NCBI GenBank assembly: GCA_030704615.1
Contig: CM060731.1
Coordinates: forward strand, 22,258,001 to 22,322,000
Origin: Takakia lepidozioides
Lineage: Eukaryota; Plantae; Bryophyta
Reading direction: 5' to 3'
Length of the DNA stretch: 64,000 nt
The notes below the pieces were generated by a model. It had not been told where the DNA came from. It did no database searches and worked only from the letters and a program-made list of their open reading frames with translations. The position numbers and the translations under genes were made by a program. This document shows positions 29,865 to 63,790 of the stretch, one piece after another (the stretch's first letter is position 1; every line of letters starts with the position of its first letter).

Positions 29865-32800
29865 CTAGAGAAGTTTGAATAAAATCAAAACCAGAATTAC
29901 AATCACAACCATCAGCAAGCACATGGTCATGAGGGACCATCCCTGGCCCGACCCTTTGTTTATTATCCCAAGTCGCTTCTGTGCAGCCTGCATTCAGAGA
30001 CAAAATTGCCAACATGAATACTAAAAGTTCATACGCAGTATGAGGTAGATCTGTTGTCCTGGTAGTAGTTCTAGAGAAATCCACAGACATAGTAGGCTCT
30101 ACAGGCTCTTTAGCAGGCTTCTGATTCCACTTCGTTCCTGGCTCCTGAAGCAGGGGCCTGAACTCGTATCCTCCACACTAGATTGGGGCTTTATCGGCAA
30201 AAAGCGGAGGGCGAGACATTATTCAATAGATGGGGGTGCCACCATCTTGTGGTTTCTGTTATTGGGGTATTGGTCAATGACCAATCAGACATTTCAGCTA
30301 GGCAATCATCCTCCCTCTTTAACAGAGAGAATATGTACTCATAGGCCGTTGTTTGCTGTAGCCTTGTGGCCATTGACCCCACGCTCAGTTTGAGCGGAAC
30401 ACAAAGGGACAGAAACTACCTTTGTCAGGTGCTGACACCGGTAGTATGACTTGCCTTGGAACAGACAATTGATCCGAGTTTTCCAGATAGCCTCCAGAAA
30501 TCCCTTTACACTGTTTAACAGAGAGATTGTACTCATAAGACGTTGTTTGCCGTAGCCTTGTGGCCATTGACCCCGCGCCCAGTTTGAGCGGGAACAAAAG
30601 GGACAGAACCTACCTCTGTCAGGGGCTGACGTTGGTAGTAAGACTTACCTCCATATAAAGAATTAATCCGGGTTTTCCAGATATCCTCTAGAAATCCCTT
30701 CACACAAGCATCAATCTGCTGTGTGTGATTTGCCCAAAAACTAGGCCTCAGGAGGGCCTGGGCTTTTGGCTCAGCCTCGAGACTTTCAAAGTTGGTTGTT
30801 TAACAGAGAGAGAATAGTCCAAAGGCAGTTCATGCCAGAGTCTTACATCAAGTCAATTGGGCATGCGTTTGAACCAATCTGGACATCAAACTGGGCGCTC
30901 GTGCACAGCACACATTGAACCTGGGGCTCCAGACATGATACTAAAAACATGATAGTACAAAATGTTCAGCCAAAATGAGAAAGACTACTTAGCACTACAT
31001 CAAGGGTTTGAATCCTGCTGAAAAAAGTCACCCACCTTAAGCCTCAAGTTTGTTGAGTCGGCATCACGATCCATATCATCCTACACATACCCAAGCAATA
31101 GTGTTATACTCCATTGAGGGTAAGCTAAAATCAAGACTGCATAGGTTGAGTGGGCTTTGCAAATTACTGCAAGCATGTCAAATCTGAAAATGAGTAATTT
31201 TGATCCAGATTCGAGGACATGCTCTTTGACACAAAATCCTTAGCACCCTCAATAGCTTAGAGCTACTTTAGCTGCTGAATTGATAATTGCCACTTGGGCA
31301 CTAGTTACCCACATTTTACCTTGCTAGGTAACCCTATATAACGTTGCTATGATACAATTAGCAGGTGTTCCACATGCACTAGTGCTTAAGGGAGGAAGCT
31401 TGAAACTCAAGCCACTCACCCGCCTTCTCAATTGTGAAGGCAATCAGCCTCAAAGGATCAGCATTGTCTAGAGGCTGACTCCCAAACTGGTGTGGTGAAA
31501 AAAGACTGATGTGAGAAGAGATCCCTCAAGTGGTATACCGTGTACATTCTAGGAGTGCTTCAGCATTTAAGAGAGGTGCAAATGTTCCCTCACAAACTAT
31601 ACGGGCAAACTGAAGAGGATCAGAAGGTATTGAGCAATTACACACCAGCAGGTGTGTATGGAGATCCAACTCTTCATTTACAGCAAGTGCAATATGCTTG
31701 GTACTCAACACTGTATGTTCAAGCCCCTCCAAATCCTGATCTTGCTCTGCTCACCTCAAAATACCACAATTTCCATTTAGTGTGGGTTACATATCACACA
31801 AAGACAGTTGAACATTTGACCTCAACTACAGAGCAATCGACAACACCCACGAAGCCAGCTCTAACCAGTTCAAAGCAGTTGGTCAAATCCTTATATTGGG
31901 AGTGTGAAATACCACAAAGAAATTGCAATTAAACTTCCTCAAAACCATATGAGAGTGTCACAGAGACATGCCTTTCATGATTTGCCTCTGAAAGCCAATG
32001 AGTCCCCTGTTGTCCACGCCTGCCGTTCGACTTGTCTCCACTGGAGGAGGTCCTCCTTCAAGCAAGTTTTCCCTGAGAAAATTGGAATAATTGTCATCAC
32101 TCCAAAAGGGCTGTTGCAAATTTTGAAAAATTAAGTTCCAAAAGCTTGAATACTAAAGGAGTCTCAATTGGTGAATGCGTGCAACTTAACAGGTACAGAT
32201 CTCTAGTCTGATATCATTGTGATGAGTGCCAATCAAAGAATATGTATGAAAAGAAAAGAAAAAATAAACACCGCAAAAAGGGCAAAAGGGGCAAAAAGGG
32301 CAAGGTAGGGACACCTATTCGCGGCTTGTGCATTAGAGAAAAACGTAGTCATTTGCTTGGTTTTCAACCGGATTGACAGAAGCATCTCTTGTCGTCTGTA
32401 CAACTCCTTCTCGTGACTGCAAATTTTCGATAAAACGACACATATCAATTACTATTCACTGCAAATCACTTTTGATTCAGGTCACATGCACATCAGCCAT
32501 GGCAAATCCTTCAGGCAAAGCACGATTCCGACAGTGAGAATTTGAAGCCAGCAACTCCTTAAGCACAACCTCCAATTACCACAGACATCGCGAGCATCGT
32601 TTTAGCACGGATACCCTACCATCACAAACAGCGAGTGGCACTATTTGAGACAACAAGGCAGAGAGAAAAGGGAATACATACAGGCTACTTTTCATAGGAG
32701 GGTTCTGCAATACGGATTCCAGACGGTCAATCTTGATGACCAGCGTGTTGAGCTTGCGACGCGCGGTTGACACCAAGCGCGTCCCTTCACTCGAAGTGGG

Positions 32801-33829: not shown

Positions 33830-36800
33830 ATGAGCAAGCTCATTCAATCGCGTAGAATTTTGTCATCTTGTGTGCCGCTGATCACTCGCATCCATGCTGG
33901 TCAGAAATCCACGCAGTTGATTCGACAATATTCAGATGCTTTGCTGCACCAGGATAGATTGGGACAAGAGGCTACAAGAAGATGGAGTTGTGTGACATTT
34001 TCGAGGTCTAAGTTCGCAAGTGGATACTCAGCGCTATCTCCCAAGTCCTTGGATTCCATCATGAAGCTGGATAGTGTGAGACATGCCTCCCCTGAAGAAC
34101 TCACCCAGATTTGGAACGAGGTGTGGTACATCTTCGTCCCGATTTCTCTTCAGTCGTCTTGTGATTTATAATTGTTCCATGTCTGATTTGGTTCACAAAT
34201 TGGGCGTGAAAGTCTGCGGAGTTGAAGCAACTTACTCCAGACTGAACCATTCGGATATTGGTCAACTATACCACTTGTCGCCCAAACGAGTGAGAGCAGT
34301 CTCCCGCGGCTCTAACTGCGGCCAAGCTACTCGATCTGGTGTGAGGGCAAATGTAGGTACATTATGTTACTCTAACTTGTGGTCCTATGGTCCATAACCT
34401 GGGCAGCCAGGGTAGAGAAACTGCGTAGTGTATCCTTACGCTCTCTCTGTGTTTGTTGTTTCTCTGGGGTACTTCAGTTTCACGCAGGAAGGGGCTATGT
34501 CAGTGCTGTCATGGGGGCTGATCTTTACAAACTCTTGGAGCAGCGTGCCAAAGCCTGGTATGTAGTAGGCAGTAGCTAGTGCCTGCGAAGTTGCACTGGA
34601 TTGAGCCTCTAGTAATTGTGCTTGCCCCATTCTCTTTAGTTGAGACAGGGGTGTGACATATAAAGACACGGCCAGTTTGATGAGTTTGTTGGTTTTTGGA
34701 ACTGGGGCACTTTTTGAAGTGTACGTGTCTGTGCAGTCCGCTTTTTGTATTCCCTCTCCGAAAGGGAAATGGCTATGTCTCCATCTTTCTGCAAGGTATA
34801 ACCTTGGCTGGCACTTACTCTTGTTTCTGAGGACTTTAAATTAAAGAGTAGGAAAGGTGAATGGGTGCTTAGTGATCTGTTTCATTGCCACTTGAGCACT
34901 GTGAGTAAACATGCCTTTAGGGACCATCGGCCCAGTAGTGCCAAGACCCATTTGGTTTAGTCCCAGGCTTAAACGATGTAAATCTACACATCAGGATAGT
35001 AGGTTGAAATGATGTTGGTATTTAAGTGAGAAGACTGATGTTGCTTTTTGAATTCCTGTACTTCCGATGGTTAAGCTGATCCCTCACTCTTGATGAGTGA
35101 ACTTTGTTTTCAACAACCTTAAATAGAGTTGGAACGGTTGTGCAGCACAGATGCCGCACATGCTTTTCACAGCACTGGATGACTATAAGGCTCGGGGTTC
35201 AAAAGCGTCCCCATACATGACTGTAACCCATTACAATGATTTGGCTGATAGCAAGGGGTTGGCGTTAGTGCGTGGTGACATCGTCTTCAATAGCAGACTT
35301 AGTGATGATGAGGTACTCTTTGAAACCTTTTGCTTGCAAGACATTAGGACCATTCACAAGGAGCCTCTTAGTCTTTGCGACATGTCCATGCATCCATGAG
35401 GGGAGAGGAGTCCTTAGAGTGAGAGAGAGATCGCCATGTCACTACTGATCTTGGCTGGTTTATAGAGATCATGTCAAGGTTTATTCTCAGATCATCTGCC
35501 TGTAGTATATAATCCCAACTATTTATATCAAACCATTGCAAATGAGGAGGGCTGGCGGGAAGTAGAAACCACCAAAATAGGTTTCAAACTTCAAAATCAC
35601 TTATCTACAGCATAGATACTCTCTGTATTATTTACCTTGCTAAGAGTCACGTGACAGAAGAGAGTAGAAACCCTACCTTGATGGACCAGCACAAATGATG
35701 GATAATGAGCCATAAACACAATCAGCAACGAACTTCAAGGTAATATGAACCCTCATGCCAGTGTCACTGTAGTATTCAACTCTATGCTAGTCTAAATTCA
35801 AACTTCTTGCAACAGACTAACAATCCAACTTCTAAATTTTTTAGGTGACGGTGAACCTCATCTATTCCCATTGCATGTTAGCCACAAACACAATTTGGTC
35901 ATGAGTAGATGGATATTGGCATCAATCTGCTGTACGTGATCTGCCCAGCACAGAGAGAATGTACTCATTAGATGTTGTTTGCCGTAGCCTTGTGGCCATA
36001 GACCCCCTCCCAGTTTGGGCAAAATGCAGAGGGAGAGAGAATGTACTCATAAGACATTATTTGCAGTAGCCTTGTGGCCATAGACCCTGCGCCCAGTTGG
36101 GGCAGAACAAAGGAAACATACACTACCTTCGTGAGGGGCTCACTCCGGTCGTGGGACTTACCTTGGTATAAACAATTAGTTTGGGATTTCAGAATATCCA
36201 TTAGGAAGCCCTTCCCAGAAGCATCAATCTGCTGTACATGAGCTGTCCAGCAATAAGACCCCAACAGGGCCAGGGCTTTAGGCTCAGCCTAAAGATTTTG
36301 AAGGTATAGATGCAGGAACAATGTTCTTGATGTTCCTGAAGAGGGTCAATCTCTTTTGAGAATACCCTGGACAATGTATCAGCAATGGATATTGTTTTCA
36401 GGCTGACCGCACGTTGGGCAACTACAATTGTTCATTGTTCAAAGGTAGGCTTCCCGCCCTAAGTTTAAATTCTAGTCTAGTGCAGAGGGAGAGAGAGAAA
36501 GATGATGTTTCTATTTAATGCTACTTTTATAGCCAGCTAGAGAATGTAGAAGCATTCAAGACTTAAGTATACTCACCTTCACAGCTCCCATATTAGCCTG
36601 CAGCTGTTAGTTGGTGGATTGGCTTTTATCTAGCTGTTACAGAGATTGTACTCATAAGACGTTGTTTGCCGTAGCCTTGTGGCCATTGACCCCTTGCCCA
36701 GTTTGAGCGGGAACAAAAGGGACAGAACCTACCTCTGTCAGGGGCTGACATTGGTAGTAAGACTTACCTCCATATATACAATTAATCCGGGTTTTCCAGA

Positions 36801-38401
36801 TATCCTCTAGAAATCCCTTCACACAAGCATCAATCTGCTGTGTGTGATTTGCCCAAAAACTAGGCCTCAGGAGGGCCTGGGCTTTTGGCTCAGCCTCCAG
36901 ACTTTCAAAGTTGGTAAACAGGGGTACAGGCACAATTCCCTTAATAGATTTGAAGAGAGCGTCTCTTTGGTGAGGGAACCCCGGACAGTGTATCAGAAAA
37001 TGAATACTGTCTTCAGATTGCCCACACAACGGGCAATTGCACTCTCCCTTTCCTCTCTGCTTCTGTTTGCTGTTCAAAGGTAGGCTTCCTGCCCTGAGTT
37101 AAAATTTCAGTCTAGTGCCGAGAGTGGGTAGACCCTTGAGGTCATCCAAGATGTCCTCCCCCATGTCACAGACTGGAAACAAGTTCAGGGAAGTTTTCTG
37201 CCTAACTGCATTTTCATCAGACAATCTCATGGCAACAGACATGGCTGAGGACATTACAGCCTCTAAGTCAGATTTATCCAGCAGGGTCAAGACTTGCGGA
37301 TCCAGGTCCAGGTCCTTGAGGATCTCTTCTACTCTCTTCTGCCAGGACTTAGCCTGTTTGACAGGGCGGTCCTGTTTCCAAGATATAGAGTCGATTAACT
37401 TAGGATATCTGGTGTTGGGCATATGTTGCAGCTGACCCCACCATCTGACCTTGAATTCATCTCGTTGGGAGCTTAAGGACGGAATGCCAAACTCACCCCG
37501 AACAGCCACATTGGCTGTCATGGAGCATGCTGACATACACTCCTTAAGCACCCCCACTTGAATGGATTCTAGAGACTTAGCCTGGTTGGAGTTATCAACC
37601 CATATAGCAGATCCATACTCCAAGGCAGGTCTAATAACGTGACAAAGCATGGTTTTCTTAACCCCAGAGTTGACCCCTCTGCAGTGGAAAAATTGAGTGA
37701 GCCCCAGAGCTTTGCCCTTGCCAGTTTGAACAACTTTCCGGATATGTGCATCCCAATTACAATTGGAGAACTCAACGCCCAGGTAAGTGTAGGAAGGGAG
37801 GACCGGGATCTCTTGGCTACCCCACTGCCACTTAAGATCACTTCCTCCCTCTCCTCTGTCGTTGAATGCTACCACTGCACATTTGCTGACATTAGCCTCT
37901 AGCCCCCAAAGATCAAAGTATCTCTTTGCGCAATCAATCAACTCCTGGAGATTGGTTGGAGTCTCCCCTATGCCTGCGAAGTCATCCGCAAACATAAGGG
38001 CTGGTATGGTGGTATCACCCACCCTTAACCCAAATCCCTCACTTTCCACATCCTCGAGGAGTTGATTGATGAAAACATTGAAGAGCAGAGGGGAGAGAGT
38101 ACATCCTTGAGCTACACCTTGGTCTATGTCAAAGAAGTTGGACTTCTGTCTATCTAGCTGTTACAGAGAGAACGTGAAAATGACTCTGGATGGAGTTTTA
38201 CTCTTGGAGCTTTACATTTACCAGCACCCCAACCCCTAAATAGTGACAATTGGAATGCAGGCAAACAATTTGTTGAAGACAGCACACTCCTTTTACTTGG
38301 ATGACTCCAGATATAGAAAGGTGCAACAGTTCAACAAGGAAAGCAGCGATTTCGATTACAAAGAAGTGCTTCAAGAACTGGGAGTTTCCTCTGGGCCTTG
38401 A
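33830..38401 (+). CDS. ATP11: Mitochondrial F1-ATPase assembly factor ATP11/ATPAF1 (5 exons; last exon 38261-38401)
   Basis: PKSLDSIMKL..IWNE / FHAGRGYVSAVM / PLFVFPLRKGNGY / QMPHMLFTALDDYKARG..LVRGDIVFNSRLSDDE / ANNLLKTAHSFYLDDSRYRKVQQFNK. Confidence 0.9.
35918..36496 (-). mobile_element. Cluster of older LINE family A fragments in ATP11 intron 4
   Basis: Tail at ~35958-36022. The copy at 36041-36480 is flanked by TSD TGCAGAGGGAGAGAGA (36025-36040 and 36481-36496). Confidence 0.85.
36646..38150 (-). mobile_element. 5'-truncated non-LTR retrotransposon (RTE/RTEX-like): RT plus C-terminal CCHC zinc knuckle
   Basis: QGCTLSPLLF, LMFADD, YTYLGV, CPLCGQSEDSIHFLIHC. One nonsense codon at 37099. 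19-bp TSD TATCTAGCTGTTACAGAGA at 36627-36645 and 38151-38169. Clade assignment is tentative. Confidence 0.92.
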
Positions 38402-39879: not shown

Positions 39880-42800
39880 TCAGGGGCTGACCTTGGAGAA
39901 ACGGAAGTCTGGTGGTGGGAGAGTGTAGTCAACATGGTACAGCAATTTGGGTCCTGCCACTACCTTCCTTCGTCGCCGTCTAGTAAACCTGAAGAGAATG
40001 CGCTTGAGAGCCTTACACACTGACATCTACATCCCACATTGTTCCGATCCCACAAGTCAATAAGGCAAATTGGCAACATGAATGCTGAAAGACAACTTAC
40101 ACTAACAGTCATGGCTTCCATCCTCATTCGTGCCTTTTAGCAAGACTTTCCTGTGAATAGAGAAGCTGCTCATCATCTGCATACTCATACAATATATGAG
40201 AACAAGCTCCATTCATACCAATGTCAAAGAGAGCAAGAGAGCAAAGAGAGCAAGAGAAGTACTGTGGCAGTTTACCAACCTCATCACATTCCCAATACCA
40301 TTTAAATTCTGTAATCTTTCTCCTTCTCTGAAACCGGAGCTTTACACTGGGGAAATGCGATAAGGTACTTACAATGAAGCGAGCTCTTCTCCGTAGTCTT
40401 TGGACTGGCCACCCACAGCTGCGTGACATGGTCTTCGCTGGTCCCCTTTTCTTCTTGGACTTGAGTTCTCTGGCAGGAGACAATAACTCTAGGGTGGCTG
40501 TGTAGGCTGGTGATCGAAAGCCTTCCTCGGCATAATTGGCCGGACCAGTAGCTACGGACTGACTACCCACCCGGCCCAGAGTGCTCGAGCCAGAGTGATT
40601 GTCGCCCCTTGAGATGTATCTTGCGGGAGAGAACCTGCTGCCTAGACGTGCAGAAAAATCAGGATTCGGAGCCTTGAAGTCATTTGTTGCTGCCAATTCT
40701 TGTTCAAGGACGGAGGGCATCGTGTAAGGCAGTCTGGGAGATTCGACGGGACTCGCTTTGAGACTGCCTGACTGTGAGCCAACCTTTTCGGTAGGGAGAA
40801 CTCCATGGCTTCCATCCTGTCCGCTCGTTGTCACTGTTTCATCGAGTTCCATACAGTGGAAATAGGTAGCAAGAGTGGGAGCCCAAACCTCGGGGCTTGA
40901 AATTGTTGCCACTTTCTGCTGGTTTCTTGACTTTCCCCACAGTCCTGTCCCATTCTTGCACATTTTGATGAGAGCTTTCATGCCCTCGGAGGCTACCTGA
41001 ATAGAATCCTTCCCCAAAGAGTCTGCATCACCTCGACCCGGATCCCTGTTTGTGGAGCTCAGTGCGTCCGAACGGGGTGCCAGATCAAATGGTGGGGGAA
41101 GACTGTAAGTAGGGCTGGCAGGTTCCTCCAAATATTGCTCAAGAGACTCATACGATGCGGTGGAGATTGATTTCGAATCCGAGACAGAGTGAGGTCTAGC
41201 TGGGCCCACCCGTATGTCAAGATCGGAGCTGGAAGGATTTGAGACTGACGCAGGGCCACTAAGGATGCTTGTCGGCGATCGTCGATTGCTAGATACACAA
41301 CCTTCATTGACATCGTGCATCCAGGGATGGGACACTATAAGCTCTGAGCTGTGAAGCCTTCGAAGTGGATTAACGGGAGGTGTGCGGGTTATTGGTCCAG
41401 AAAATGCCCCAGACTTGCTGGTCAAGGACGAGTTGGTGACAGCTTGATTTTTGATCGAGCATTCCAGCAGGAGTCTAGGGCTGCCGCTAGCTACGGAAGC
41501 CTGCCTTGAATTTCTCGTCTGGAAGACTCGATGATCCTCTGCTGGGCTTACGATTGTAGTTGGAGCCTTGGGAGGTAAGTGTTTGGCAAATACATTGATC
41601 TTCGAAGAATCTGTGTTTGTCAAAGAGGGAGTTGGCTGCCGAGCTGGGGAGGAGACAAATCTAGATGGAGGGAAAAATCCAGCTAAAGGGGCGCTCATAG
41701 AGTGATTGATGTAGTGAGTTCGAAGCTCCTCCGATATTGAACCTTGCTTTGGAGGAGGTGCTGCAAGCCTGGGGGGCAGCTGGAGAGCGTGAGGTTTAGA
41801 TGCCACCGCATCTGCCTTGGGCTTCCCCGGAGCTTCCTCCCACTTGAAAGGGACAGCTGCTGGATTTTTCTTCGGGGTGGGGGAAGGAGAGACGGAGGTC
41901 TCTACCAAAAACCTGGCTGCAGCTGGGGCCACCAGATCAATATGGCACCCTATCTCCAATTGGGAACCAAATCGTCGACTGGACCTAGCCCCAAAGCTTC
42001 TGTCCTTGCAGTTCGCGCTTCGGTAGAACCTTTGGCTGCTTTTGCAACTGCGGTCCCCATCTCCAGCTGCCAGGCTTCCTCGAGGCGTCTCAAACTCGCT
42101 GAACATGCTCTCATCCATTGACCAAGACTTCTTTAAGGACATGCTTCTATCGATGGAAGTGTTTCTCTCCACCCCGGCTCCTGAAAGCTTTCTTGCCACT
42201 GCTCTTTGTGCAGCCGCTGCAATTGTCTTGGGTTTTCCAGGGACATCCTCCCATTGGAATGGAATTGCAGCAGCTGCCCGCAATGGGGTGAGCTCCGGTG
42301 ACTTGTCCAGGCACTCCGAGGCCGGGACGTCCGAAGGCTTATGAGTACTTTCTTCAGAATTTTCTGTCATGGGGCGGGCACCCTTCAGTCCCTCTGTATC
42401 TTTCTCCGGACTCCTCTCCTCAACACACAACTCCAAACCAGAAGAATTTGATATGCACAGAGGCGATATACCAAGCTCACCACTCACCCATTGGCGGGAC
42501 ATTCTTGAAGTTCTGACTGGACTGTACATGGACCTCAAGTCCCCACTGATGCATCTTCTGGAAGGGCTTTGCCAAGGCTTGACAGCATCCAGCGGAACAC
42601 CATTTGGCCTCTCTCCAGGAGTTATGAAATCCCTCCAGGGGGATCTGGACCCCTGTTTGTGGCAGACCAGAACACCCTCATTATTAGTCTCGACAATGCG
42701 AGTTGGAGAGTTCCTCCAAGGGGAACGACTCCCGTGTTTTGTACTCACTTTCCCATGAGAATGACCATCGCTCGTCTTGGCACCAAGACCAAAATCCCTC

Positions 42801-43213
42801 CAAGGTGATCGGATTCCCTGTCTGTTACCAACACCACCGTGAGCCAGATTTTTCTTTTTCTTCTTACCATGAATGACGGAGTCACCCCAAGGAGATTGAG
42901 ACCAATGTTTGCTATCCCGCCTTGCAGGATGTTCATCCTCTTCCCACAGCGCAAGGCTCTCCCGATCTCGACTGTCCTCCGACCGAAAGCTACTGCATGC
43001 TGACTTCCCTCCACTCTCACGACGCTTGTGCGCAGGTTCACTCCTCTCAGGGAGGGGTAGTCGGTTAGGTGAAGCTTCATACAGAGGGCTTCGTCGAGGG
43101 CTGGGGTAGAAGAGCGGCAGCTCCCCATTTCGTGAGTGATTGCTGATGGTACTGGTGGGGAAGAACTCCAGATCAGGAACGTCAAGCGCTATGCTCTTCA
43201 TACTCTTGTTCAT
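39880..43213 (-). CDS. Large Ser/Pro-rich disordered protein with two DUF688-type motifs; exons ~43213-40373 and 40026-39880
   Basis: ORF of over 1000 codons with AAIPFQWEDVPGKPK and AAVPFKWEEAPGKPK. GT donor after RARFI and an in-frame second exon. Start codon uncertain. Confidence 0.75.
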
Positions 43214-46200
43214 ACTGGAGTCATGGGAGTATCTCTGGATAGTCTTTTGAAATTCTCTGCGGTAGGGTCTGTCGCTTGTTTTGAATAGACCATCCAAACG
43301 CTTTGGCGTGACTCCGAGCCCATTCACCCCGTCTCCCCTTACCACCTTGTCCACAAAGAACCATCGGGCCTTTCCCAAGTCAATGGGGGAACCAGTTCCA
43401 TTCTATATCTTCAATATCCTGCCTCTCTCTCTCCCTCCTCGAGTATAAGCTACCTCTTCTTTTATCTTGATGAGAAAAGCTATATCCTCTGCCTTTATCT
43501 CAAATTTCTCCCGCCACTGTAGATCAAGAGATATGGTTTAAAATTTAGCCTGAGATCTAGCGTGTCTACAACGAACCGGACCTGAGTAACAAACGATTAA
43601 GCTCTCCAGGCCTGCGAGGAGGAAGTGAACTATCTACAACCAATAGTTTGCTTAGCAGGAGTGGAAAAAGCGAACTAACGAGGAATAGATGCTCTCTTCT
43701 GCAGAGAAGAAGCTGAGGCAATTTCGAAAATCCGGATCCGAAGTTACCCGGTTGCTAAATTCAAGGTTGAGGCCTTCAAAAGTTGAACTAGATGAGATGC
43801 CGAAACAACTCTAGAGACTAAAAGATGAAGTCTGCGCAACACTGGACACTTGACATATACACTACTATCTGAGCAGCTAACAAAGCACGAGCGATTGAGG
43901 TAAACACTGAACTAGCGAACACCCAGTTGCCAAGACAACACACTGATCGAGATTACCCAGTTGACAAGACACTAACTTCAAAGTCAGTGAGACGACACTG
44001 AACGGACTTAAAAGTGTTCAGGCATGCGATCAGCACACAGCCAGGAAAAGAAAGATATTGGGAAGTGGCGAAGCGGCTGCAGAGAGGCGGCGAGAAGCGA
44101 GGGCGAGCGAATTGTGGCATTCATGAGGCTTTTGAGGCTACTCTGACCACCCTGGGTCAAGTATTCATGAGCGGCCATGGCTGTCGCCAGCAGGCTACGT
44201 CCACGTTCTCGCATTCACAATACTTCAGATGCCTTCAAAGCTTGGGTCACTAATAAAAGAGCAAGGACTTGATGCTGGACGATGTACATAATTATTGATT
44301 AACTTAGAGAATCTCATCTAGCTTACTGCCTAATAAATTGTGTTAAGCAAAAAATTTGAAACCTCTATTGGGTTTGTCGCCTCACTGATGATTCTGTCTC
44401 TGAAAGGTGGGCGGCCATTGCTCTTGAATTTGGAGGCTGGCATTGTAGCTACGGACCCACATGAAATCGTGTGTGGGTTTGATAGTGAACACCTATATCG
44501 GGTTGCAACGTGCATTCACTCAGCCGTCTTTCCGAGGATTTGGACTGATTTTGGCGTTTCTTGTGTCTGCTTCGGACTCTGATGTGCTAAAGTTGGAAGT
44601 GGATGGCAGGCCTTTAAGACATTGGTACGTGTACTCGGGCTCGAAAGAGATTACTGTAGGTACTTGTAGGAGATGAGTGACAGCTTTGTCTCTTCTTCTG
44701 GAGGTTTTTTAGCACCGTTATGGATTGTAGCCGAAAACTGTAAGGCTTTGTGCAAGCTTATGATTAACACAATTATGATAATCTGGCATGCAAAGCTGAT
44801 CACTGTATTTTTAGGACTGCACAGCGCAGCTACCAAACAATAAATCCCAACTGGCTAATTGAGTACATGCTCATTAAAACCCTCTCCAGAGGGATCCATC
44901 TATCAAATCTCTGTGACACTCATGAGGCAACTATTACGACTACGTTTGTGCTTTCCTTCATGTGTATTGTGCATTCCTTTTCCGCAAAGGGCTTTGGAGG
45001 ATGACCAACTGTGACTCCCACAGGCGGTTGTCTCAACTTTCAAACTTTACGCAGTGAATGTTGTTATAATGATCTCTAAATATTTATAGAACCGAGGAGT
45101 GAATAGAATAGTACCAACTTCCGAGCATTGAAAACAGTCAGTCAGTCTTGTTGAAGATTAATGTGTCAGGGCCCTGCTGAATCGTTTTTAGGCAAATGCT
45201 CGTCAAGAAAAGCAAATGGAACCTAGAGAGGGTATCCGAAATTTCTTGGATACGTTATGACGTTATCCCCTTTACATGTTTAGAAGAGTGATGAATGGGA
45301 GTCGGGGTTATACTAAGAAAGGCAGATGCCTCACAGCGATGGAATGTTTCGAACTGGGGAGCTACTCAGATCCCAAGGGAATCCAAGTCTGGTGGGGGAT
45401 TCCACCTCCAAAACCTCGTCTGGTAACTCATCTATCCAAGTACTTCTGGCATTCCGCACTGCAGAAAGTCGTGGTCCAAGCGTGCTGATCTACTCGATTC
45501 CATAATGTAGACCGTCTGTCAGAGAGAAGGGCCTGTTTGCTTAGTCGTTAAATTTTTGTCTGCCTACTACTGGAGACGGAGAGAGGAGTGTGAGAAATAT
45601 ACCCAGAGAGTGGCTTAATTTGTGTGCACAAAGGCACTGATATAGGCTAAGGCATCGGCTGTGAGTGCAGCGCGGATCAATTCCTACCTACTTACCAAAG
45701 ACAGCAACAACACATGCTTCCTGGTCATGCTTACGTCGAGAGGCACTGGTGAAAAAAAATGACCTTGTTCAGACGAATATTGTCAGTGGGTTCTGTCGTG
45801 CAATGGCCCTCGCGACTCAGGAGTCAAAGTGATTCCAACGGACATCTGACTTCAACATGAAGTACAATCTCCACCGTGCACTATGAAAATATAATACCAT
45901 TCACACATTCATAACCCTTCCAAGTGAGTCGTAGTTCATATACTCTCTCGCCGGATGTTTTTAACCATAGCTTTCGTGAAAGAGTCACGAGGAGCACGCG
46001 GCCATCTCAGGGCAGCGTACCCGTGTCTGCAGGAGGACAATCCCCCTACAGTCTGTCCCACAGATCCATCAAGCTGTGTACCTCGCTGAACAAACAGAAC
46101 AAAAGAAAACTTTCCCATGCAGAGCCTGCTCATATGCCCCAATTCGCGAGCTTCCAGTAAAATTCTTTCCACTTTCGTCTCCTCCAAGGCAATCATCTCT

Positions 46201-53699: not shown

Positions 53700-55103
53700 A
53701 AAAAATAATTGCGACTGCCATATATTCAAAGTTGCATCTAATTAAATTTTAAAAAAATAGATGTGACCGCCTGTATTGGCAGTCGCGTAATGTTTTAAGA
53801 AAAATATGTACGAGCGTTAAAATTTGACAGTCCCACAAAAATTTTAAGAAAAATATGTGCGACCGATGAAATTTGACAGTCGCATGCTATTTCTTTTATT
53901 TGATATATGGGACTGCCAAAATCCGGCAATCATAATTTATTTATTTTTTAGTACGTGTAACTACCACAACTCGGCGGGCAACATATAATTTGTTTTGAAA
54001 AAAATATGTGCGATCTGCAAATTCAGCGGTCACATGTAAATTATTTTTGAAAAATAAGTACGACCGCCAAAAATTCAGAGGTCACTTATAATTTAAGTTT
54101 TCAAAAATTAGTGCGACCGCCAATTCTAGCGATCGCACATATTATTTTTTATTATTTTAAAAAAAACTACATGCTACCGCCAGCCTTGTTGGTCGAACCA
54201 ATTTTTAAAGAAATAGAACTTTTCTTTTCTTTTCCGAAAATGGGTACGATCACCAATTATGGCGGTCGTACCTCTTCATAGAATAAAACATTACATGCAT
54301 CCGCCAATCTTGGCGGTCGTACCAGCTTATGAGAAAAAAATGGTTTTTATTATTGAAAGTGGATGCGACGACCGATTACGGCGGTCGCATCTATTAAGAA
54401 AATAAAAACTTATATGCAACTTCCAGCATTGGCAGTCACACTCACTTTTAGAAAAAATAAAAATAAAAATATTGTTTTCCATATTTTGCTCGACTACCAG
54501 TATCTGTCATAAACACCCAAAAAATCAAATCGGCGAAAGGCCAGCGGACGCTTAAGCGGGTGTCCGAATAGAAGTAGCAGCCTCCATTCTAGGCCAAGTT
54601 GTAAATGGCATGGGCCCCACTTGGGTGCCACATGCCGCAATGTGGGCACATAGCTTTGGAAACTTCTAAAGTCCAGAACGTTCTATAGGGGGTCCCCTAA
54701 AACGTATCCGCCTAGCCGCTTACCATTTTAGCGTGAGCTGGAGAGGGCCAGGTTGTACGAGGAGGACTGTACCAGAGCATATGGGAGGTTGTAACAGAGA
54801 CACGGAGTGTAGTAGAGCCAGAGGCAGGGGACCGTGACCATGGAGGCAATGAAAGCAAAAGCCCTTATTATCCGCGTTGGGGTAGAGGTTGGCTGCAGCA
54901 GGCGGTAGTAGGGCTGGTTCCGTATCAAATTAGTTATCATTTCATTGGTAGTAAGTTCTTGGTGTGCTTGGTGACAAGGCTTGGACACAAAAATGAAAGT
55001 TATTATATTCATTGCAGCAAGTCGTGACAATAGATGGGTATGGCGGTCAAAATTATTTTCTTGAAAAAACATTACCTACGACCGCTAGCCTTGGCAGTCG
55101 CAC

Positions 55104-55138
<35 letters not shown>

Positions 55139-55536
55139 TCCCAATTATGGCAGTCTCACAAATTAAGAAAATAAAAGTACAGGCCACTGCCATAATTGGC
55201 TGTTGCACTTATTTAAGAAAATAAAAAATTATATGCGACAGGCAATTATGGCGATAGTATAAATTTTTAAAAAAAATACATGCGATCACTATAATTGGAC
55301 GTCACACCTATGAAAACATAAAAAATATAAATTATTGCAGCACATCCAAAATATTGGAATTCAAGCAACCACAAATATTTGGCGGCCTCATACAATTAAG
55401 AAAATTTTAATAGTTGTGACTGCCAAATTTCGGCGATCGTAGCTAATTACAAATATAAATTTTTTGAAGCGACTACTAAACTTCAGCCCTCGTAAATAAT
55501 TTTATATTTAAAGATATCATTAAAATGCCTTTAGTG
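53700..55536. repeat. Two arrays of palindromic TGCGACCGCC-N6/7-GGCGGTCGCA units with AT-rich spacers; probable CACTA-type subterminal repeats
   Basis: About 14 units in 53700-54500 and about 9 in 55020-55500, period roughly 50 bp. TAGTG at 55532-55536. Confidence 0.75.
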
Positions 55537-58333
55537 CTAGTTAGATCCACGTGTGCAGCCCATGGTCCACCTCGATATCTAGGATAAAAACATACTAATA
55601 AAAGTTAAATATAAAATAATTTTCAAGAGATAATTTCTATTTTGGACGTGACGCGACGTACGTTTGGACGTGACTTCCGATGTTACGCTTACGTACTAGC
55701 GCCACATCACGTCCATTGTGCAACCCTGTCTGAAAAGACATTTGGAGGAAAGATTAGTCTTCCAATATCAGGGCCTTCATGGAAGACTGTCAATCATATC
55801 ATCAATGTCTTTACAAGTGACCCTCTTTGCCCTATATGAAAAATTTGGAACAATGTCTCTGGCTATTTGTCTGACGCGGCTTGGAGGCTTGTCGTGAAAT
55901 TCTATGCCAAATGGAAGGTAAGGTGGCTATTGAAAAAAACATCGGGGTTATTCTTCTTAATATGCATAGTCAAATCCCTTGGCACTCTATTGCGCTTCAT
56001 TTCGTGCCTAAACTGTCTAGAATAGTTTGTCTAGGCATAGTTTGTCTTCTATGCATGCGGCATGAATTTGCAAAAATATGTTTCCTCTTCTGTGGCACCA
56101 CCTCTCTTTACTCGCTTACATCTTTTCCTTAGTGCACTCTTGCAAGAGCTTCCGTTTATGTATACAAAGCCGTAGGGAGACATTTATTTGGGATGGAGGG
56201 GAATACAAAGTTTTTAAAAAGTGTACTTGTTCCATTCGAGGCAGGATCCTTGTTTGGCACATCCCCAACTAGAACACAACCCCGGGCTATTAATCATGGG
56301 TCACCATAGCTGGTTGATATTTATGATTTTACCTATAAATAAGTTGTCATAACCATGGTACTTTTGTATGTAAGACTTTGTAGACAATATTATATTGTTT
56401 TTTGATGCATGTCTCATCCCAATATCTGACGTGTGTTTTTGTTTTTTTCTTCTATAAGACACTACTTTTTGACATCGGAAGGAGGGTCATTTCTTCTGGA
56501 TTTTTAGGATTTTTCCTAGTTCCCCGTGATAATTCCATCTTACCTTTCCACATGAGCTACACTGACCTCTCGATAATCCTATCAACTATTTCTTCTAGAA
56601 CCTTTGCTAGATATGCACATATGGAGGCTACAGTGTGTTTGGACGATATAGTCAGTGTTTCTAACTAACGATAGTGTGACGGATAGCTTCTCTTGAATAA
56701 TGTGCATTCACTTCGTTTTGAGACCGGCCTCATGTATTCCTCATTTCAGACTTCAATTTCTTTTGTTTGTCCACAACACTTTTTAAGGTTCCTGTGTGGA
56801 TGGCAATATTCAAATTATTATGTTCAAGTATGTTAAACATCGCATTATTGAACAACGCATCCATTTCAAGTCACATTAAAATTTTTCCTTGGAGTTGGTT
56901 TAGTTCTTGTCGGTTTGCATGGATAGTTAATCTTCCCGGAAATATGACTGCTTACTAATTGAACCTCCGTATATGTGGGTCTCATATCTGCGGGTATAGG
57001 TCTACAGTTGTCATCTTTCCGTGCCCTGAACCCGAATCCAACACAACTCTATACGACTGAGAATGCTCAAATCTGCTTACATTAGCATGCCCATTTATTA
57101 GCATTCCACAGGTTTGCAGCTTGCTCGCTTAGTGTGCTCTACATGGTTTTAGCATCCACATCTGTGATGCATTTAGGCCTCTCTGAGGTTATATTTCCTT
57201 GGAATATACTTTAGGTCGTCGTCGTTGAAAATTTAAAATAAAATAAAAAATAAAAATATGCATGCAGGTAAAATGGGCTGATCCTTTGTCAATATAGAGA
57301 GATCTATCCAACATTTAACCCAGTGATACCTCACTAGTGTTGTGGGGTTCAAACTACATATTGGATGATATAAAAGATGTGCATTTTCCACCGGAAGTTT
57401 ATATCTAGACTTAAGGGTCAACTGACACCATAATTTACGTTTGCTTTGGCAACAAGTCCACATTTTGTTTTTCAATCCATAATAGAAAAACCCGTAAAAT
57501 GACATCAGTCACATTTTTCTATTTTTTTTTTTTTCCTTGGTTACATTTATCCCATGGTTTTGTTGTAACCAAAGATGTGTTATTTGGGTAAGATACAACA
57601 TAATCAAAATAGTTGTGGCACTCCTCCTCGGGGATGAGCCAATAAAATAATAAAGTATAGAATAGTTAATTGTAATCTAGATTCTTGGACATTCAAATAA
57701 TTTTGAACTTATTAGTATCTTTTAATCATTAAATATTTACTTTCATTGAACAATAGTTTTGTCGTGCACCTAAGCATAGTGCCACAACATACATCGTTGT
57801 CTACCACACAATCTAAGCACACAATCCTAGAAAGCTATACCACCTATCCCCATGTCCCAAGTGAGGCTCGACACCTCACTTGGCATGTGAGACCCAATGA
57901 AGTCCCAACACACAAAATATAAATATAAATATCTAAAATGTCCTAGTTAACTAGAAGTAGGTAATTCTAAATAACCATGACTAAAACCATGACAGCTGTC
58001 GTACACCTAAGCATCGTGCCACAATATACATCGCTATCCACCACACAATCTAAGCACACAATCCTAGAAAGCTATACCACAATCGTCCCCCTAGCTGGTG
58101 ATTAGATCCTTCTAACACCAGATAGCTGACAAGTATCCATCCCAATAATATCATCGCTTGGTCATCAATCGCCCAAGTCCCAGTATCTGAAGTCAATAGA
58201 TCAAGAGGCGCAAAAGTAGCCCCATCGTTACTTGCCTTCCTGCAATCCATGGCTTCAATTGGGTGTCCATGGCATTGAACTCCCGTTAGCTAGACCTTGG
58301 ATCACTTGTCAACCTTGCCACTGTCATGCCCCA

Positions 58334-58486
58334 CTACCTCTGTCCAAAGCATCGTGGACACAACCATTCTCCATTAGGAACCTCCTCAAGTGGCGGTATC
58401 AAGCATCCCATGTGTCACCCCCTTGAGCATTTGTCACACACCAACATGGTCGCGGCACTACCAGCATGTCCACATAACATGCAATG
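58334..58486 (-). other. PHD finger (C4HC3) at the integrase C-terminus
   Basis: CMLC..[32 protein letters not shown]. The internal TGA falls at the conserved aromatic (W) position. Confidence 0.85.
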
Positions 58487-61400
58487 CAACCCTACAAGTA
58501 CCACTGCAAGGTTGGGATCCATCCTCCCATCCACATGTGGAAGGTGACATGACGCACAATTGCGCACATGGTCCTTCCATACCATGCCATCTCGACCCTC
58601 CAGAATCAATACTCCTGAAGGCAACACTTCCCAGACCCTTAGAATCACACGACCTGCTGTGATATCCAAGGTCGTAGGCGTTGTCTGCTGCAGATACACA
58701 AAGTCCTCAGGATGGAAACGCCGAACACCTGGCCGATATCCTCCTCCATGTATAGTGGCGTACCTCAATGTGTCTCGGTGTTGGGCAATAGCAAGATTCT
58801 CAAAAGCCTTAGGCATGACTCTATTGAACAACTCTGTCCGTTGGGCATATGCTTGTGTCCACACATCCGGATCATCAAGGTTGAGGACTACTGCAGTCTC
58901 CCTGTGAATAGATGCAGGCAAATCTGGCTCTCGGCCAAAGAAAAGGAAATAAGGCGAGAACGAGGCAAGTGATGCTTGCTTGTTAAACCTGTAACCCATG
59001 GCCAACCAAGGTAGCTGAAGGTCCCAATCTCCCAAGTGTCCCTTCTGCAAGTCATACTTGCGCAAGCCTCGTTTGACTGTTTGCACAACCTTCTCGGCCA
59101 AGCCATCAGCCTCGGGATGATCCCGAGAAGTAGTGCGGTGATCTATCAAGGCTTGGTCATACAAAGCTTGAAATTCCACCAAGAACTCTCTCCCCTGGTC
59201 AGTGAGTACCTCGGCTGGAGCACCAAATTGGCTAAGCACTCGATCTAAGAATGCATACGCAGCCCCCTCACTTGCCTTGTCAGGCAATGCCACCAGTTCA
59301 ATCCATTTGAAGAAATGTTCTACCATCACCAGCACATACTTGTTATGGCGAATTGTTAGTTGCAATGGGCCTACGAAGTCAAGACTCCAACGATAGCCCA
59401 AACCCATAATGGGTAAATGATGCAATTGTGGAGTAGGTGCATTGAAAGAAGCCTGCACTCTATCACACAACATGCACCTTGCCACTAACTGTTGCACATC
59501 CGTGTGCGTGCCCCACCACCAATATTATCCTTGCAGCAAACTATAAGTGCGCCGCACCCCAAAATATCCCAACTCCTCATGGGCATGGCATACCAATCGC
59601 GCTCGTTGTGTTAGATGAGGCACAATCCTCACTCGTCCATCCTCCCATACTCGGAGTAGGTGAGTCCCCTCCCACTTGAATCTCTTGGCTCGTTGTAGGA
59701 TCCGATCTCTCTCATTAGCAGTCACACTGGCTGCTATCTCTCTAGTACCAAGGTAGGCCAACACTGCTGCATCTTCATGCATATCCTTAGCACCACCAAG
59801 CTCCTCATTGATCTCTGGATCGTCATGCACACTATCTCCATGACCAATCACATGGGATGGACCAGCTTGAGCTCCCATTGCTAGAATGCACAAAAAGGCA
59901 GATGCATGTCATCCTGGCACCATCTCCTCATCTGTCTCATCATGCCACCGAGCTCCAGTATCATCATGTTCGCTCGTGCATGGATTACGATTCAACCCAT
60001 CTGCATCCCGATTGACTACACCGGCTCGATGTACCACCTAGAAGTTGTACTCTTGAAGCATAAGTGCCCACCGTGCAAGCTTCCCTGTAAGCTTGTCTGA
60101 CTCCATCAACCACTTCAATGGTTGGTGATCCGTGACAAGGGTGAAGAGATTGTCATAGAGGTAGCATCTAAAATGTGTCACTGCCCATACTGCAGCTAGA
60201 CACTCCCCTTCATAGGAATTATATTTCGCCTCGGCATCATTGTTCGAGTGGCTAGCATATGCCACTACGAACTCTCTTCCATCATATTCCACCTGTGTGA
60301 GCACTGCTCCAATCCCCAGCATACTCCAATCCATATGTAGCTAGAAAGACCGCCCCCAAATAGGCCGCATCAGAATAGGCGCAGAAGTCAATCGAGCCTT
60401 GAGTTCCTCAAAGGCTTTCTCCTGCTCCTTCTCCCACTGTCACTCCTGATCCACATTGGTCAACTTGGCAAGAGCCTTTGCAATGCTGCTAAATCCCTTG
60501 ACAAACCGTCGATAGTAGTTTGCCAACCCCATGAAAGCACGAACTCTGCTAACATCGATGGGGCGTGGAATGCGTGCAATGGCCTCCACCTTCGTCTTTT
60601 GAACACCCAATCCTCCAGGGTATATCATGTGGCCTAGATACTCAATCTGGTTATGGAAAAACTTGCACTTCCCAGGGTGCAATTTCAACCCATGCGCTCT
60701 CAAGCGCTCAAACACCATCTGAAGGTGTCTCTCGTGCTACTCAATCGTAGCACTAAAGATGATGATGTCATCAATGTAGCACCGAACGAAGTCTAGCCCC
60801 GCAAGAATCCTATCCATGACCCTCTGAAACTCTGCAGGAGCAATCTTCAACCCAAACAGTAGGAACCGCCATTGGTACAAGCAATCCTTCCCATGTTGGT
60901 CAATCCCCCAGAATATCGTCTTTTGCTTGTCAACCTCTTTGATTAGCAACTGGTGGTAACCGGATTACAAGTCCAATGTGCTAAACACATTTGCATGCCC
61001 AATGGCATCAAAGTTCTCCTCAGGAGTTGACATGGTATATCTATCGGACTTAGTCTGACGGTTCACAGGACGGTAGTCCCCACATATGCTCCTTTCTGTC
61101 CAATCGCCATAGATATCTTTCTTAGCTGGCATCACAGTTGCCGAGGCGTACTCCCCGCCTGACAACTCCACCAATCCAGATTCAAACAACTTCATAGTCT
61201 GTGACTGGATCAAAGACCTCTCCATATCACTATACTTGTAGGGCCTTCGAAAAATTGGCACGTCACTTGCCAAATCAATACGAATCTCCTGGCCCTTCAA
61301 ACTCCCCAAATCCTTCAAGCCGAAGGCAAAGCAATTTCTATAAGCCCTTATAAATCGCTAGATCCTCCGCCTCTCTCCTCCGGTGACTGTAGGTCCAACA

Positions 61401-61865
61401 TCTGATTCCCAGTTGTCTTCAGTGACTGCAACCTTGGGTACACCAGGTTTGGAAATAGGAGACGCATCCTTTGGTTGCTAGATAGCAACCTCTTGGGCTT
61501 TATCCGCCCACCCTGACCGTGGCGTAGCCTCCACTTGCTCCGCCATAGCCACCTTGAGAACATCCTCTGGGGGAAGAAACATTCTCAACCTCTTCAAAAA
61601 CATTGGTCACCTTGGCCTCCAACTGATCCTCAGTGTATGGCTCTCCCCACTCCTCATACTATTGCTTGAGAGATCCAATGAGACTCTCTTTGTGCACCTC
61701 ATCCCACATTTGCCATGGGTGTTTGTACCCCATGATCCTATGCTCGCCCCCACTCACTGCCTCCACCGTCCCGGTTGGCAGAGATGGTGTAATATCCAAT
61801 GGAAGTACAGAAGTAGCCACCAATGCTTGCAATCTCCGTTGCTCAGCCATGCACAAGCCAATGAC

Positions 61866-62835
61866 TCATGTCAAACAATCGAGATCCATGGCCTGCCCCA
61901 ACACCTGACGTCGTGATGCCTCTGACAGAGCTGGAAGAGTACTGCCTGTAGAAAATCCCATTGCCCGTTCTCGCTCATCCACATTGGGCTCCACTAATTG
62001 CTGTAGCACACCGTCCCAAATCAACCCAGGACCATTGTCTCGAAAAACATGAGACGAGGGAAAGCTTATGAGCGTAGGCAAGGCTGCATGTGGTTGCCCC
62101 ACTCGATTTACTACTGCTAGAGGTGGACGGTCATCATGTTGCACCCTCTGTGGTTGCCTCCCTTGGTCCAAAATGCCCTCAACTATGAGATTGGGTGGCC
62201 GTTGAATGGAATCGTATGCTCTCTTGAGCAGCTCTGGTGGTGCAAGATTGGTCCACCACAATCGAGGTTAATGCGCTCGTGATCCCACCGCTGCTGCATC
62301 CAATAGCACCGCCGATCCAATCCAAAACCGCACCTGATGCTTACTGGCTATAACCCTGGCCCGAGAGTCCCCTATAAGAGGAACATTCTCCAAGATATAG
62401 GCTAGCACTTGCTTCGTCTACAAATCACGCAACACTTTCAACATCTCCCAAAACAAATGCAATCGCGCATCATGCAAGCCATTCCCATGACCTATGGGAT
62501 AGTGTCCTTGACAAGACCATCCAGCTATCACCAAGTCAATGGCACCATGCTGGTCCAAATCATCCGCCCCCAGCAAGGTAATGTCTGCTAGCCAAGCCTT
62601 TTTGATACCCTTGAATTGCTCAGAGAGGCAACAACTCAGGATACCGGTGTGTGAGCAAGACGATGTGGCACATAGAAATACACCGAGCTATCTCATCCTT
62701 CTCCACATACAAGTACTTGCGTACTTTAAACCCTGCTTGCAACACTCTTGCAAGCCCAGTGCTCATGCCTTCAAACATGTCTAGCAAACAAATCCTCGAG
62801 TCAAGTGGTTGCCAGATAATGAGCATTGTGTCCAA
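61866..62835 (-). pseudogene. DNMT3-like C5 cytosine methyltransferase domain within gypsy Pol
   Basis: Motif I LLDMFEGMSTG, II YVEKD, III DIT, IV DLVIAGWSCQG (~62504-62537), VI YILENV (~62382-62399), VIII SRAH*PRLWWTN, IX ERERAMGF, X RRQVLGQAMD, all in canonical order. Stops and a frameshift are present. Confidence 0.88.
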
Positions 62836-63456
62836 AATGGAGGTGAGAGAGGCTCATGGAGGCTCAACTACAAGAAGATGAGCCTCCTCCATCCTCACAA
62901 AGGGAAAACCTATCCCCATGTCCCAAGTGAGGCTCAACACCTCATTTGGCATGTGAGACCCAATGAAGTCCCAACACACAAAATATAAATATAACTATCT
63001 AAAATGTCCTAGTTAACTAGAAGTAGGTAATTCTAGATAACCATGACTAAAACCCTGATAGTTTGGAAGGGAAAACATTCAATGTATATATAGAGGATTT
63101 AAGAAAGGCTATAACAAGAAAACACATATCATAGTGAGAGACAAATAAATAAATAAATAAAGGCCCAAATCACAAAAAACAACTTATTGGTAATAACTAG
63201 TCATCTTACTAGTAAGTCCAACTAGGAGAAGTTCACCAAGTTATAGCTGCATTTTTTTTTCTTTCAAACCCTAAACATATCCTCTCATTCCCATACATGC
63301 TCCAAGCAAGCTAAAAAACAGCTCTAATATAGGATACACAACCACAAGAACATGAACAACGTTTTTTTTTTTGCGAATTTTTGCCAAAATGCTCCATTTG
63401 TTTTGGCTCCTACCTCACTTTAGTCTTAGAGGAAATGAAGGCATTTTTTTTCTAGG

Positions 63457-63790
63457 CACTACAGGAAAAAAAGGGGGGGTTTCCGACGCCGGGGCCACGT
63501 CGCGGCGTCGTAAAACAGCCCTTTTCGGGCGGGGTGGGAAAGAACCAAATTTGCGTCGTCCAGGCGTCGCAAGCCCGTCGCCAAAAAAACGTTGCAAATT
63601 TGCGACCAATGGGGGTCACAAATGGGATCGTGATTTGCAACGCCCGGGCATCGCAGGGGATAAATAAATTTTATAAATAATAATTAAAAAAAAAACCTAC
63701 TCTGCATTGTAGAATTAGCACTGTCCGGGGGTCGCAAAGTGCGACGCCCGGACGTCGCAATTTAAGGGGGTACATTTGAGTTTGGGCGGA
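63457..63790 (+). mobile_element. CACTA (En/Spm) terminus with palindromic subterminal repeats
   Basis: CACTACAGGAAAA followed by repeated TGCGACGCCCGGGCGTCGCA-like palindromes. Confidence 0.75.

Follow-up and report, generated by a model that had tools for sequence, protein, structure and literature searches.

The window analysed here, a stretch of 64,000 nucleotides of Takakia lepidozioides (GenBank assembly GCA_030704615.1, contig CM060731.1, positions 22,258,001 to 22,322,000), carries on its minus strand, at 57760..63060, a Ty3/gypsy retrotransposon with its own DNA cytosine methyltransferase (DNMT) and a PHD finger. The copy is dead and has lost gag; it belongs to an old Ty3/gypsy clade of green plants, in which purifying selection maintains the DNMT as an integral part of the family. 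One of the stops that an earlier note on this DNA had counted as decay (at 61480) is, by its sequence, a family-wide feature in a tobacco mosaic virus (TMV)-type context. In the subfamily of the window element, the first open reading frame (ORF1) encodes Gag, protease and DNMT, and reverse transcriptase (RT), RNase H (RH), integrase (IN) and PHD lie behind the stop; judging from the letters around it, DNMT and protease are likely made at the Gag level and RT-IN-PHD by readthrough. Retrotransposons with a writer plus a reader are already in print. The new points are the conserved readthrough-type stop, the structure of the ends, the placement of the DNMT in green-algal relatives and a PHD finger lacking the cage tryptophan.

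The coordinates given for the element in the earlier note proved to be its true ends, as a GTTT tetramer (plus strand) stands on each side, at 63061..63064 (left) and 57756..57759 (right), and forms a 4-bp target-site duplication. Read along the minus strand, this decayed and internally deleted Gypsy-DNMT3-type element, with ends TA(TG)...CA, holds a DNMT3-like C5 cytosine methyltransferase domain with motifs I, IV, VI, VIII, IX and X (61833..62850), an ORF1 tail or linker 3' of it (61481..61832), the conserved ORF1 stop TAG CAA CCA (61472..61480), an RT with the YIDD motif (60617..61321), RNase H (60047..60436), a DDE integrase made of an H2C2 zinc finger, the rve core and a C-terminal part (58600..59608), and a C4HC3 PHD finger at the integrase C-terminus (58349..58483). 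In the polymerase and integrase part, Pfam searches of X-read translations gave RVT_1 (4e-28), RT_RNaseH (2e-32), Integrase_H2C2 (4.9e-11) and rve (3.1e-11), and the order RT-RH-IN with a DDE integrase is that of Ty3/gypsy elements; where chromoviruses carry a chromodomain at the integrase C-terminus, the PHD finger stands instead.

Decay is extensive. The DNMT has four stops (62622, 62420, 62270 and 61868) and one frameshift (near 62620), the linker has a stop at 61661 and a second frameshift, where the earlier note had seen only one in all, and behind 61480 there are nine premature stops, with 60967 and 60739 in RT and 58417 in the PHD finger. Gag and protease are gone from this copy; in relatives that segment measures about 3.6 kb, according to the spacing in L052 and L053. 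At the joint of the deletion (62836..62837, about 70 nt past the 5' repeat), loose ends at 62837 are seen in X1 (32 contigs), X2 (18) and X9 (2). The copy is thus dead and without gag, as had been claimed, but two of the supposed signs of death fall away: the change of Pro-Cys to Ser-Cys in motif IV keeps the catalytic cysteine, and the TAG at 61480-61478 is not decay.

That TAG recurs in the relatives. In most of them DNMT and RT are in the same frame with one stop between them, which rules out a programmed frameshift at this place. Among 47 distinct loci that span the linker, a stop followed by CAR lies 47-54 codons before RT in 34, and it is broken in 2; the exact UAG-CAR-YYA is present in five (L006, L043, L045, L048 and L064) through different codons (CCA, TTA, TCA), compared with 0/188 occurrences of CAR-YYA after decay stops inside the domains. 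Across 61466-61484, contigs from the host runs show no variants at 3% or more at a summed depth of about 1e5, and five sites near the stop, where changes are private to the window copy, have other letters in 80-100%. The plan is seen intact in L048, with an ORF1 of 1369 amino acids (protease, DNMT), a single stop and a same-frame ORF2 of 1047 amino acids (RT-RH-IN-PHD). The ORF1 of L006 contains a CCHC knuckle, and the ORFs of four Marchantia proteins (P0004, P0005, P0007 and P0010) and of P0006 from Calypogeia end at the matching place, 76-80 amino acids past the DNMT. The open DNMT-RT frame that the earlier note expected in intact copies is therefore not to be expected in close relatives, which carry the stop between the two domains as a conserved family feature.

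In the window, UAG-CAR-YYA stands in frame between two ORFs, as in the TMV-type (type I) signal (PMC2194720). According to the available parts of the literature, CAR-YYA suffices by itself to direct readthrough in TMV, and a Gag to Pol ratio of about 20:1 is required by retroelements (PMC2194720); with the TMV context, stable plants show 6-10% readthrough (PMC2754532) and transient assays 32% (PMC2194720, PMC2754532). Compared with the readthrough systems of TMV, SIRE1, murine leukemia virus (MuLV) and Tca2 treated there, the element shares the TMV type of signal; its stop differs in position, as it follows Gag-protease-DNMT and precedes RT.

Because the stop separates DNMT from RT-IN-PHD, the DNMT is likely produced in amounts like those of the capsid protein, and chains that also include the PHD finger are likely rare. 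To hypothesize, ribosomes would quite probably pass UAG-CAR-YYA at rates between a few and some tens of percent, giving an excess of Gag over Pol and hence of DNMT. With the first frame encoding Gag-protease-DNMT and the second lying behind a likely leaky UAG, we lean somewhat towards a DNMT that is made and packaged with the capsid and likely methylates new cDNA in the particle; a Gag-level DNMT predicts enzyme in particles, acting on cDNA. By the same modest preference, the packaged enzyme would methylate cytosines, most likely in CG, before insertion, and new copies would arrive pre-marked and either resemble host DNA or stay quiet. The self-contained writer-reader module proposed in the earlier note is weakened by the fact that writer and reader flank a conserved stop in the subfamily of the window element, with one chain likely only in the minor readthrough product.

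Several observations weigh against packaging by readthrough. In the commonest family, of moss type, the context is TAG-CAA-CCC-ATG (TAG or TAA, then CAA-CYC-ATG, in 29 of the 47 loci, 4 of them with TAA), which departs from the consensus by a single base; 11/47 loci have no such stop, which form a distant family, and eight proteins have DNMT and RT in one open chain. The gag-pol stop of Tca2 is not necessarily one of simple readthrough, as far as the accessible text of PMC2194720 and PMC2754532 goes. Algal relatives carry the DNMT inside Pol, and Gag-level dosage is thus not required across the clade. As for the enzyme, motif IV of distant relatives reads Glu-Cys in 82 and Pro-Cys in 69 of 159 scored proteins, and KnitGypsy-Dnmt3 of Klebsormidium nitens gave no methylation in yeast, a result judged inconclusive in the part of PMC5890265 available to us; in favour of activity, the same source reports that SymbioDIRS-Dnmt3 methylates CG de novo.

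The reader domain bears on where methylation would take place. The PHD finger noticed at the integrase end is supported by Pfam (PHD, 2.4e-10) and is found clade-wide. The residue two positions before its histidine, a glycine in the window copy, is Gly in 96/104 sequences and Trp in none of the 104; that Trp builds the H3K4me3 cage. The nearest solved PHD fingers are those of CHD4, PHF12, PHF21A, KAT6A, ATXR5, KDM5A (PHD1), DPF3, UHRF1, BAZ2A/B and AIRE, which mostly read unmethylated H3K4. With the cage Trp missing, a reader of unmethylated H3K4 is predicted, and it is reasonably likely that the integrase would be steered in this way from active promoters. Alternatively, host chromatin or the insertion site might be the chief place of action of the DNMT: the PHD finger would bring the readthrough polyprotein, or a complex of DNMT and integrase, to H3K4-unmethylated chromatin, and the new copy and its flanks would be methylated after integration, in the manner of the ADD domain of DNMT3A. 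This fits the PHD type, the retention of both domains across the clade (54 stored proteins, counting cluster members, have them in a single chain) and the algal relatives, in which the DNMT adjoins the integrase. We nevertheless consider it unlikely for the subfamily of the window element, where the stop parts the DNMT from IN-PHD and the protease of the element would likely separate the domains. In some relatives (P0047, P0259, P0290 and P0291) a Tudor-like domain, chromodomain or G-patch stands beside the PHD finger; P0259, a distant relative, is the one listed with both PHD and chromodomain.

The DNMT itself is well supported. All motifs listed in the earlier note are present in the given order on the minus strand, and the X-read translation matches the DNA_methylase profile (E 6.5e-6, 26.2 bits with a cut-off of 22). 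The description as DNMT3-like agrees with three lines of evidence. The best PDB match of the window domain is human DNMT3A (E 2.2e-5; HhaI 0.27); a profile of 31 relatives finds DNMT3A at 4e-24, DRM at 1e-15 to 2e-11 and HhaI at 5e-10, with DNMT1/CMT absent from its 56 PDB matches; and the model of the DNMT of a natural relative (pLDDT 92.9) has DNMT3A/B as top Foldseek matches (E 1.6e-20). With motifs I-X in order, this is an unrearranged C5 methyltransferase of DNMT3 type.

It could be argued that the element retains the domain for binding nucleic acids or for weak catalysis, as an RNA or cDNA chaperone or a decoy for host methylation factors, rather than as a DNA writer. The frequent Glu-Cys and the inactivity of KnitGypsy-Dnmt3 in yeast would suit this, but the entire DNMT3 fold is predicted, and relatives conserve motif I, ENV, the catalytic Cys and motifs IX-X; even among 37 decaying copies, FGGI is kept in 33, ENV in 30 and GWPCQ or GWECQ in 26, which makes the proposal quite doubtful. 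The Ser-Cys of the window is private to this copy, as motif IV in the other host-run contigs is Pro-Cys in 43437/44093 of the depth. Selection also acts on the domain, as the dN/dS comparison across copies suggested in the earlier note has shown: the median dN/dS of the DNMT is 0.23 in 109 pairs at dS 0.8-2.5 (252 pairs were saturated), while in close pairs, where post-insertion decay dominates, it is about 0.5, as for RT and IN. Between the window DNMT and the 37 other copies, dN is 0.27-0.76 and dS at least 2.1 or saturated. CpG depletion was uninformative (element 0.48, window 0.53, PPR gene 0.35, seven relatives 0.28-0.70).

With the same architecture, ORF2 might instead be reached by re-initiation, an internal promoter or splicing. 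Re-initiation is conceivable because the commonest context is off by one base and an ATG follows, two codons past the stop in the main moss-type family; the first Met stands 44-49 residues before RT in P0192, P0194 and P0195, and Tca2 offers a precedent in the accessible parts of PMC2194720 and PMC2754532. No ATG stands there, however, in the window, L006, L043, L045, L048 or L064, CAR-YYA is kept through different codons, which points to constraint at the nucleotide level, and the stop and ORF2 remain in frame with ORF1. It therefore seems very unlikely that such a route replaces readthrough.

Among the outcomes that would undo it, the earlier note had named a DNMT that adjoins RT only at this locus. 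A protein search with the DNMT part (7995 proteins scored, longer proteins at E <=1e-5 counted) returned 26 proteins, 14 from Marchantia polymorpha, 1 from Calypogeia, 1 from Sphagnum fallax and 10 others, with identities of 33-66%; homologues reach E 2e-113 at 63% identity, and 506 clusters of a 50% library match at E <=1e-10. The PHD finger is present in 18 of 25 long clusters scanned (25 of 150 listed). Of 172 loci in a metagenome scan, the best 80 were kept, 65 of them distinct; their order is gag-PR-DNMT-RT-RH-IN-PHD as far as contigs extend; the PHD finger is reached in 18/80, and L066 and L075 are long enough yet lack it. In host-run contigs the summed depth, which does not equal copy number, is 7e4-6e5 over the coding part including the DNMT against 72-136 in most flank bins, and the DNMT plainly belongs to a highly repeated unit. 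Although the window copy lacks gag and has its DNMT next to the 5' repeat, a nested insertion or the accidental uptake of part of a host DNMT3 at this one locus can practically be dismissed, because close relatives occur in Marchantia, Calypogeia, Sphagnum and metagenome loci, the domain order is identical in liverworts, mosses and algae, the depth of the DNMT stretch matches that of RT-IN (7e4-1e5 against flanks of 70-140), purifying selection is seen, and DNMT and RT distances are correlated.

In green-algal relatives the DNMT lies between RNase H and integrase, and motif IV is often Glu-Cys. A census of 368 stored proteins, cluster members included, found RT-RH-DNMT-IN-PHD in 47 (named members are from Scenedesmus and Pleodorina) and DNMT-RT-RH-IN-PHD in 7; P0072, P0234, P0294 and 40-odd further proteins are of the type with the DNMT in the middle (Scenedesmus, Pleodorina; a piece in Haematococcus). 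In an RT tree of 107 RT-RH sequences, from which short domains were left out, named proteins of Klebsormidium, Coleochaete, Closterium and Calypogeia group with the type that has the DNMT upstream. In the 62 elements that have the two domains, these types separate cleanly in the DNMT and RT trees (0.985 and 0.978; the DNMT tree is unrooted, and root support of the RT tree is unreliable after re-rooting), and the distances of the two domains are correlated (Spearman 0.61, p 0.001). The clean split and the correlated distances argue that the two domains have long been inherited together, after either one relocation or two captures. As side observations, P0193, a transcript-derived protein of Coleochaete scutata, is 64% identical to the RT-IN-PHD frame of the window, and P0320, which belongs to a close RT-IN-PHD cluster, bears a cyanobacterial label and probably comes from plant or algal DNA that entered a metagenome bin.

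The ends set the element further apart, and to read them as ordinary paired long terminal repeats (LTRs) would be wrong. The termini are split direct repeats in the order A1...B1-A2-B2, the A-coding-B-A-B plan, with 12 mismatches/238 overall: A1 at the 5' end (62908..63060) differs from A2 (57842..57994) by 6 mismatches/154, and B1 (57997..58080) from B2 at the 3' end (57760..57843) by 6 mismatches/84, all on the minus strand. The G-rich tract before B1 is a polypurine tract (58083..58092, minus strand). L042, L052, L053 and L078 follow this plan too, with repeats that are unrelated or diverged in sequence. With some decay, the element ends in TGTCATG...CACGACA, and both end sequences meet in the internal B1-GC-A2 junction (57990..58001), a palindrome GACA-GC-TGTC with a 2-nt spacer at 57995-57996. 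The spacer is GC in the window and 5 other distinct elements, and AT, AC, GT or TC in 7; the junction search presumed a 2-base spacer, and repeat mapping agreed where checked. All eight insertions with both ends visible (window, L030, L042, L052, L053, L055, L061 and L078) show 4-bp target duplications. A DDE integrase thus inserts an element whose two ends both stand in its internal palindrome. No TGG-type tRNA primer site directly follows A1 in the window or in the 22 loci printed.

With about even chances, the internal B1-GC-A2 junction would serve as template for both DNA ends, and the integrase, cutting the two strands in a staggered manner after CA, would yield two processed ends with 2-nt overhangs. 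One count is at odds with this: a B end precedes a 5' end in 0/19 cases, and a symmetric two-junction circle cut at random would differ, so that the two junctions of any circular intermediate would be used unequally. Taking all parts together, we propose only tentatively a clade that spans green algae to land plants and has combined a DNMT3-like writer with an H3K4me0-type PHD finger since early green-plant history, with a land-plant branch in which programmed readthrough would load the DNMT at capsid level, cDNA would be pre-methylated and ends would arise by a DDE-integrase cut of the CA-GC-TG junction templated by split repeats.

Two copies, L030 and L061, have the form A...B only. One-repeat circles are unneeded as their source, because L050 shares the flank of L030 and keeps B-A-B, which fits later recombination of B1 with B2 or assembly collapse; the flanks of L030 and L050 are 98.9% and the elements 91% identical, with B-A-B in L050 and a single B in L030. 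Odd A2|B2 seams in L042 and L055/56 give a hint of end joining, weak in that it comes from two insertions of which L055 is rearranged. Strong hairpin folds occur on the minus strand at 57760-57899 (z -3.2) and 62837-62976 (z -2.6), in repeats A and B and the stretch after A1. The idea of a self-priming fold common to the copies finds no support, with z -2.6 in 2/4 A1-end stretches and +0.9 and -0.9 in the others.

The closest described system is KnitGypsy-Dnmt3 of Klebsormidium nitens (de Mendoza et al. 2018, PMC5890265), which according to the accessible text has a DNMT3-like domain in Pol, Ka/Ks <0.2 and DIRS-like repeats. The window element shares with it the gypsy domains, the unrearranged DNMT3-like domain under selection and the A-coding-B-A-B repeats; it differs in its land-plant host, its very high depth and the position of the DNMT, in the Gag ORF before a stop rather than in the Pol ORF. 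PHD, 4-bp duplications and a CA-GC-TG junction go unmentioned in that text, in the part available, although the PHD finger may appear in its Fig. 4c. An RT-RH-IN-PHD protein of K. nitens (GAQ89454.1), which may or may not belong to the published element, falls in the same streptophyte group of the RT tree as the type with the DNMT upstream. Because the stop parts DNMT from RT, which share one open frame in more distant relatives, the window element is a variant and not a strict member of KnitGypsy-Dnmt3 or streptophyte Gypsy-DNMT3.

The EpiLTRs of Cymbomonas and Euglena (bioRxiv 10.64898/2026.05.21.726589, available in part) are likewise LTR retrotransposons with a cytosine DNMT and a histone reader; they differ in DAM, a chromodomain and a DNMT4-sister enzyme, and the source sets them apart from streptophyte Gypsy-DNMT3. 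The intact-looking L048 has neither DAM nor chromodomain. In Chlamydomonas, Gypsy-7a_cRei (PMC9940879) has a PHD finger in a green-lineage gypsy polyprotein and a bias to intergenic insertion, and REM1 (through PMC6673714 and PMC9940879, compared by description only) is a PHD-bearing gypsy element; the accessible text mentions no DNMT for either. SymbioDIRS-Dnmt3 and split-repeat tyrosine-recombinase elements share the DNMT3-like domain and the A-coding-B-A-B repeats (PMC5890265, in part), but SymbioDIRS-Dnmt3 uses a tyrosine recombinase where the window element has a DDE integrase and 4-bp duplications. Membership in DIRS/PAT/Ngaro is ruled out by the rve integrase and those duplications, and Troyka (CG...CG ends, 3-bp duplications, animal hosts; PMC12440569) by TG...CA ends and 4-bp duplications.

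In the portions available, PHD fingers are widespread in retrotransposons (PMC6673714, PMC8557442, PMC9940879), the streptophyte and dinoflagellate cases of retrotransposon DNMTs are restated in PMC12344493, PHD goes unmentioned in PMC6317226, and 10.1101/363937, PMC6317226 and PMC3350952 are silent on the family of the window element. A literature search that excluded subscription papers, theses and Repbase found no land-plant or chlorophyte description, no split-repeat gypsy element and no CARYYA in retrotransposons. As regards the earlier statement that no land-plant family with DNMT and PHD was known, the host is a land plant, as the PPR-E-DYW gene and the PLA1-Igamma lipase in the window confirm; the combination is less new than it seemed, since PHD fingers are common in retrotransposons, the Klebsormidium relative has one and EpiLTRs have been described.

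The role of retrotransposon-borne DNMTs has been open since 2018, partly since the known hosts are hard to handle. With 14 named proteins of this family, Marchantia polymorpha, for which genetics and mutants in methylation are available, makes the role directly testable on existing material. The pairing of split repeats and DDE integrase suggests that retroelement ends can be made in a manner so far undescribed, and elements of this kind likely escape paired-LTR finders; their copies are filed as "DNA methyltransferase" genes in plant proteomes and can inflate DNMT counts.

Elsewhere in the window, an intact PPR-E-DYW frame of 1038 codons with 303-nt repeats, of the RNA-editing factor type, lies at 21645-24761 (plus strand), with an inverted PPR-like relic at about 27274-28415. 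Host genes include an NAD synthase exon (3706-4251), a class 3 lipase resembling PLA1-Igamma (11953-14408; at most 56% identity in the proteins compared and 50% to those of seed plants), a Snf7/VPS2 exon (17278-17766) and a DUF688 protein (40124-43402), and a tRNA-Leu(CAG) gene is at 20053-20136 (minus strand). A fragment of a non-LTR retrotransposon RT (37099-38160, minus strand) is accompanied by many short dispersed copies of one non-LTR end (families D3-D9 and I1) at 17104-17361, 26526-27112, 30324-30813 and 35950-37207, some of them tandem with a 194-nt unit. The element is flanked at 53790-55500 and 63480-63760 by AT-rich short repeats with a GCGAC/GTCGC core, possibly relics of DNA transposons.

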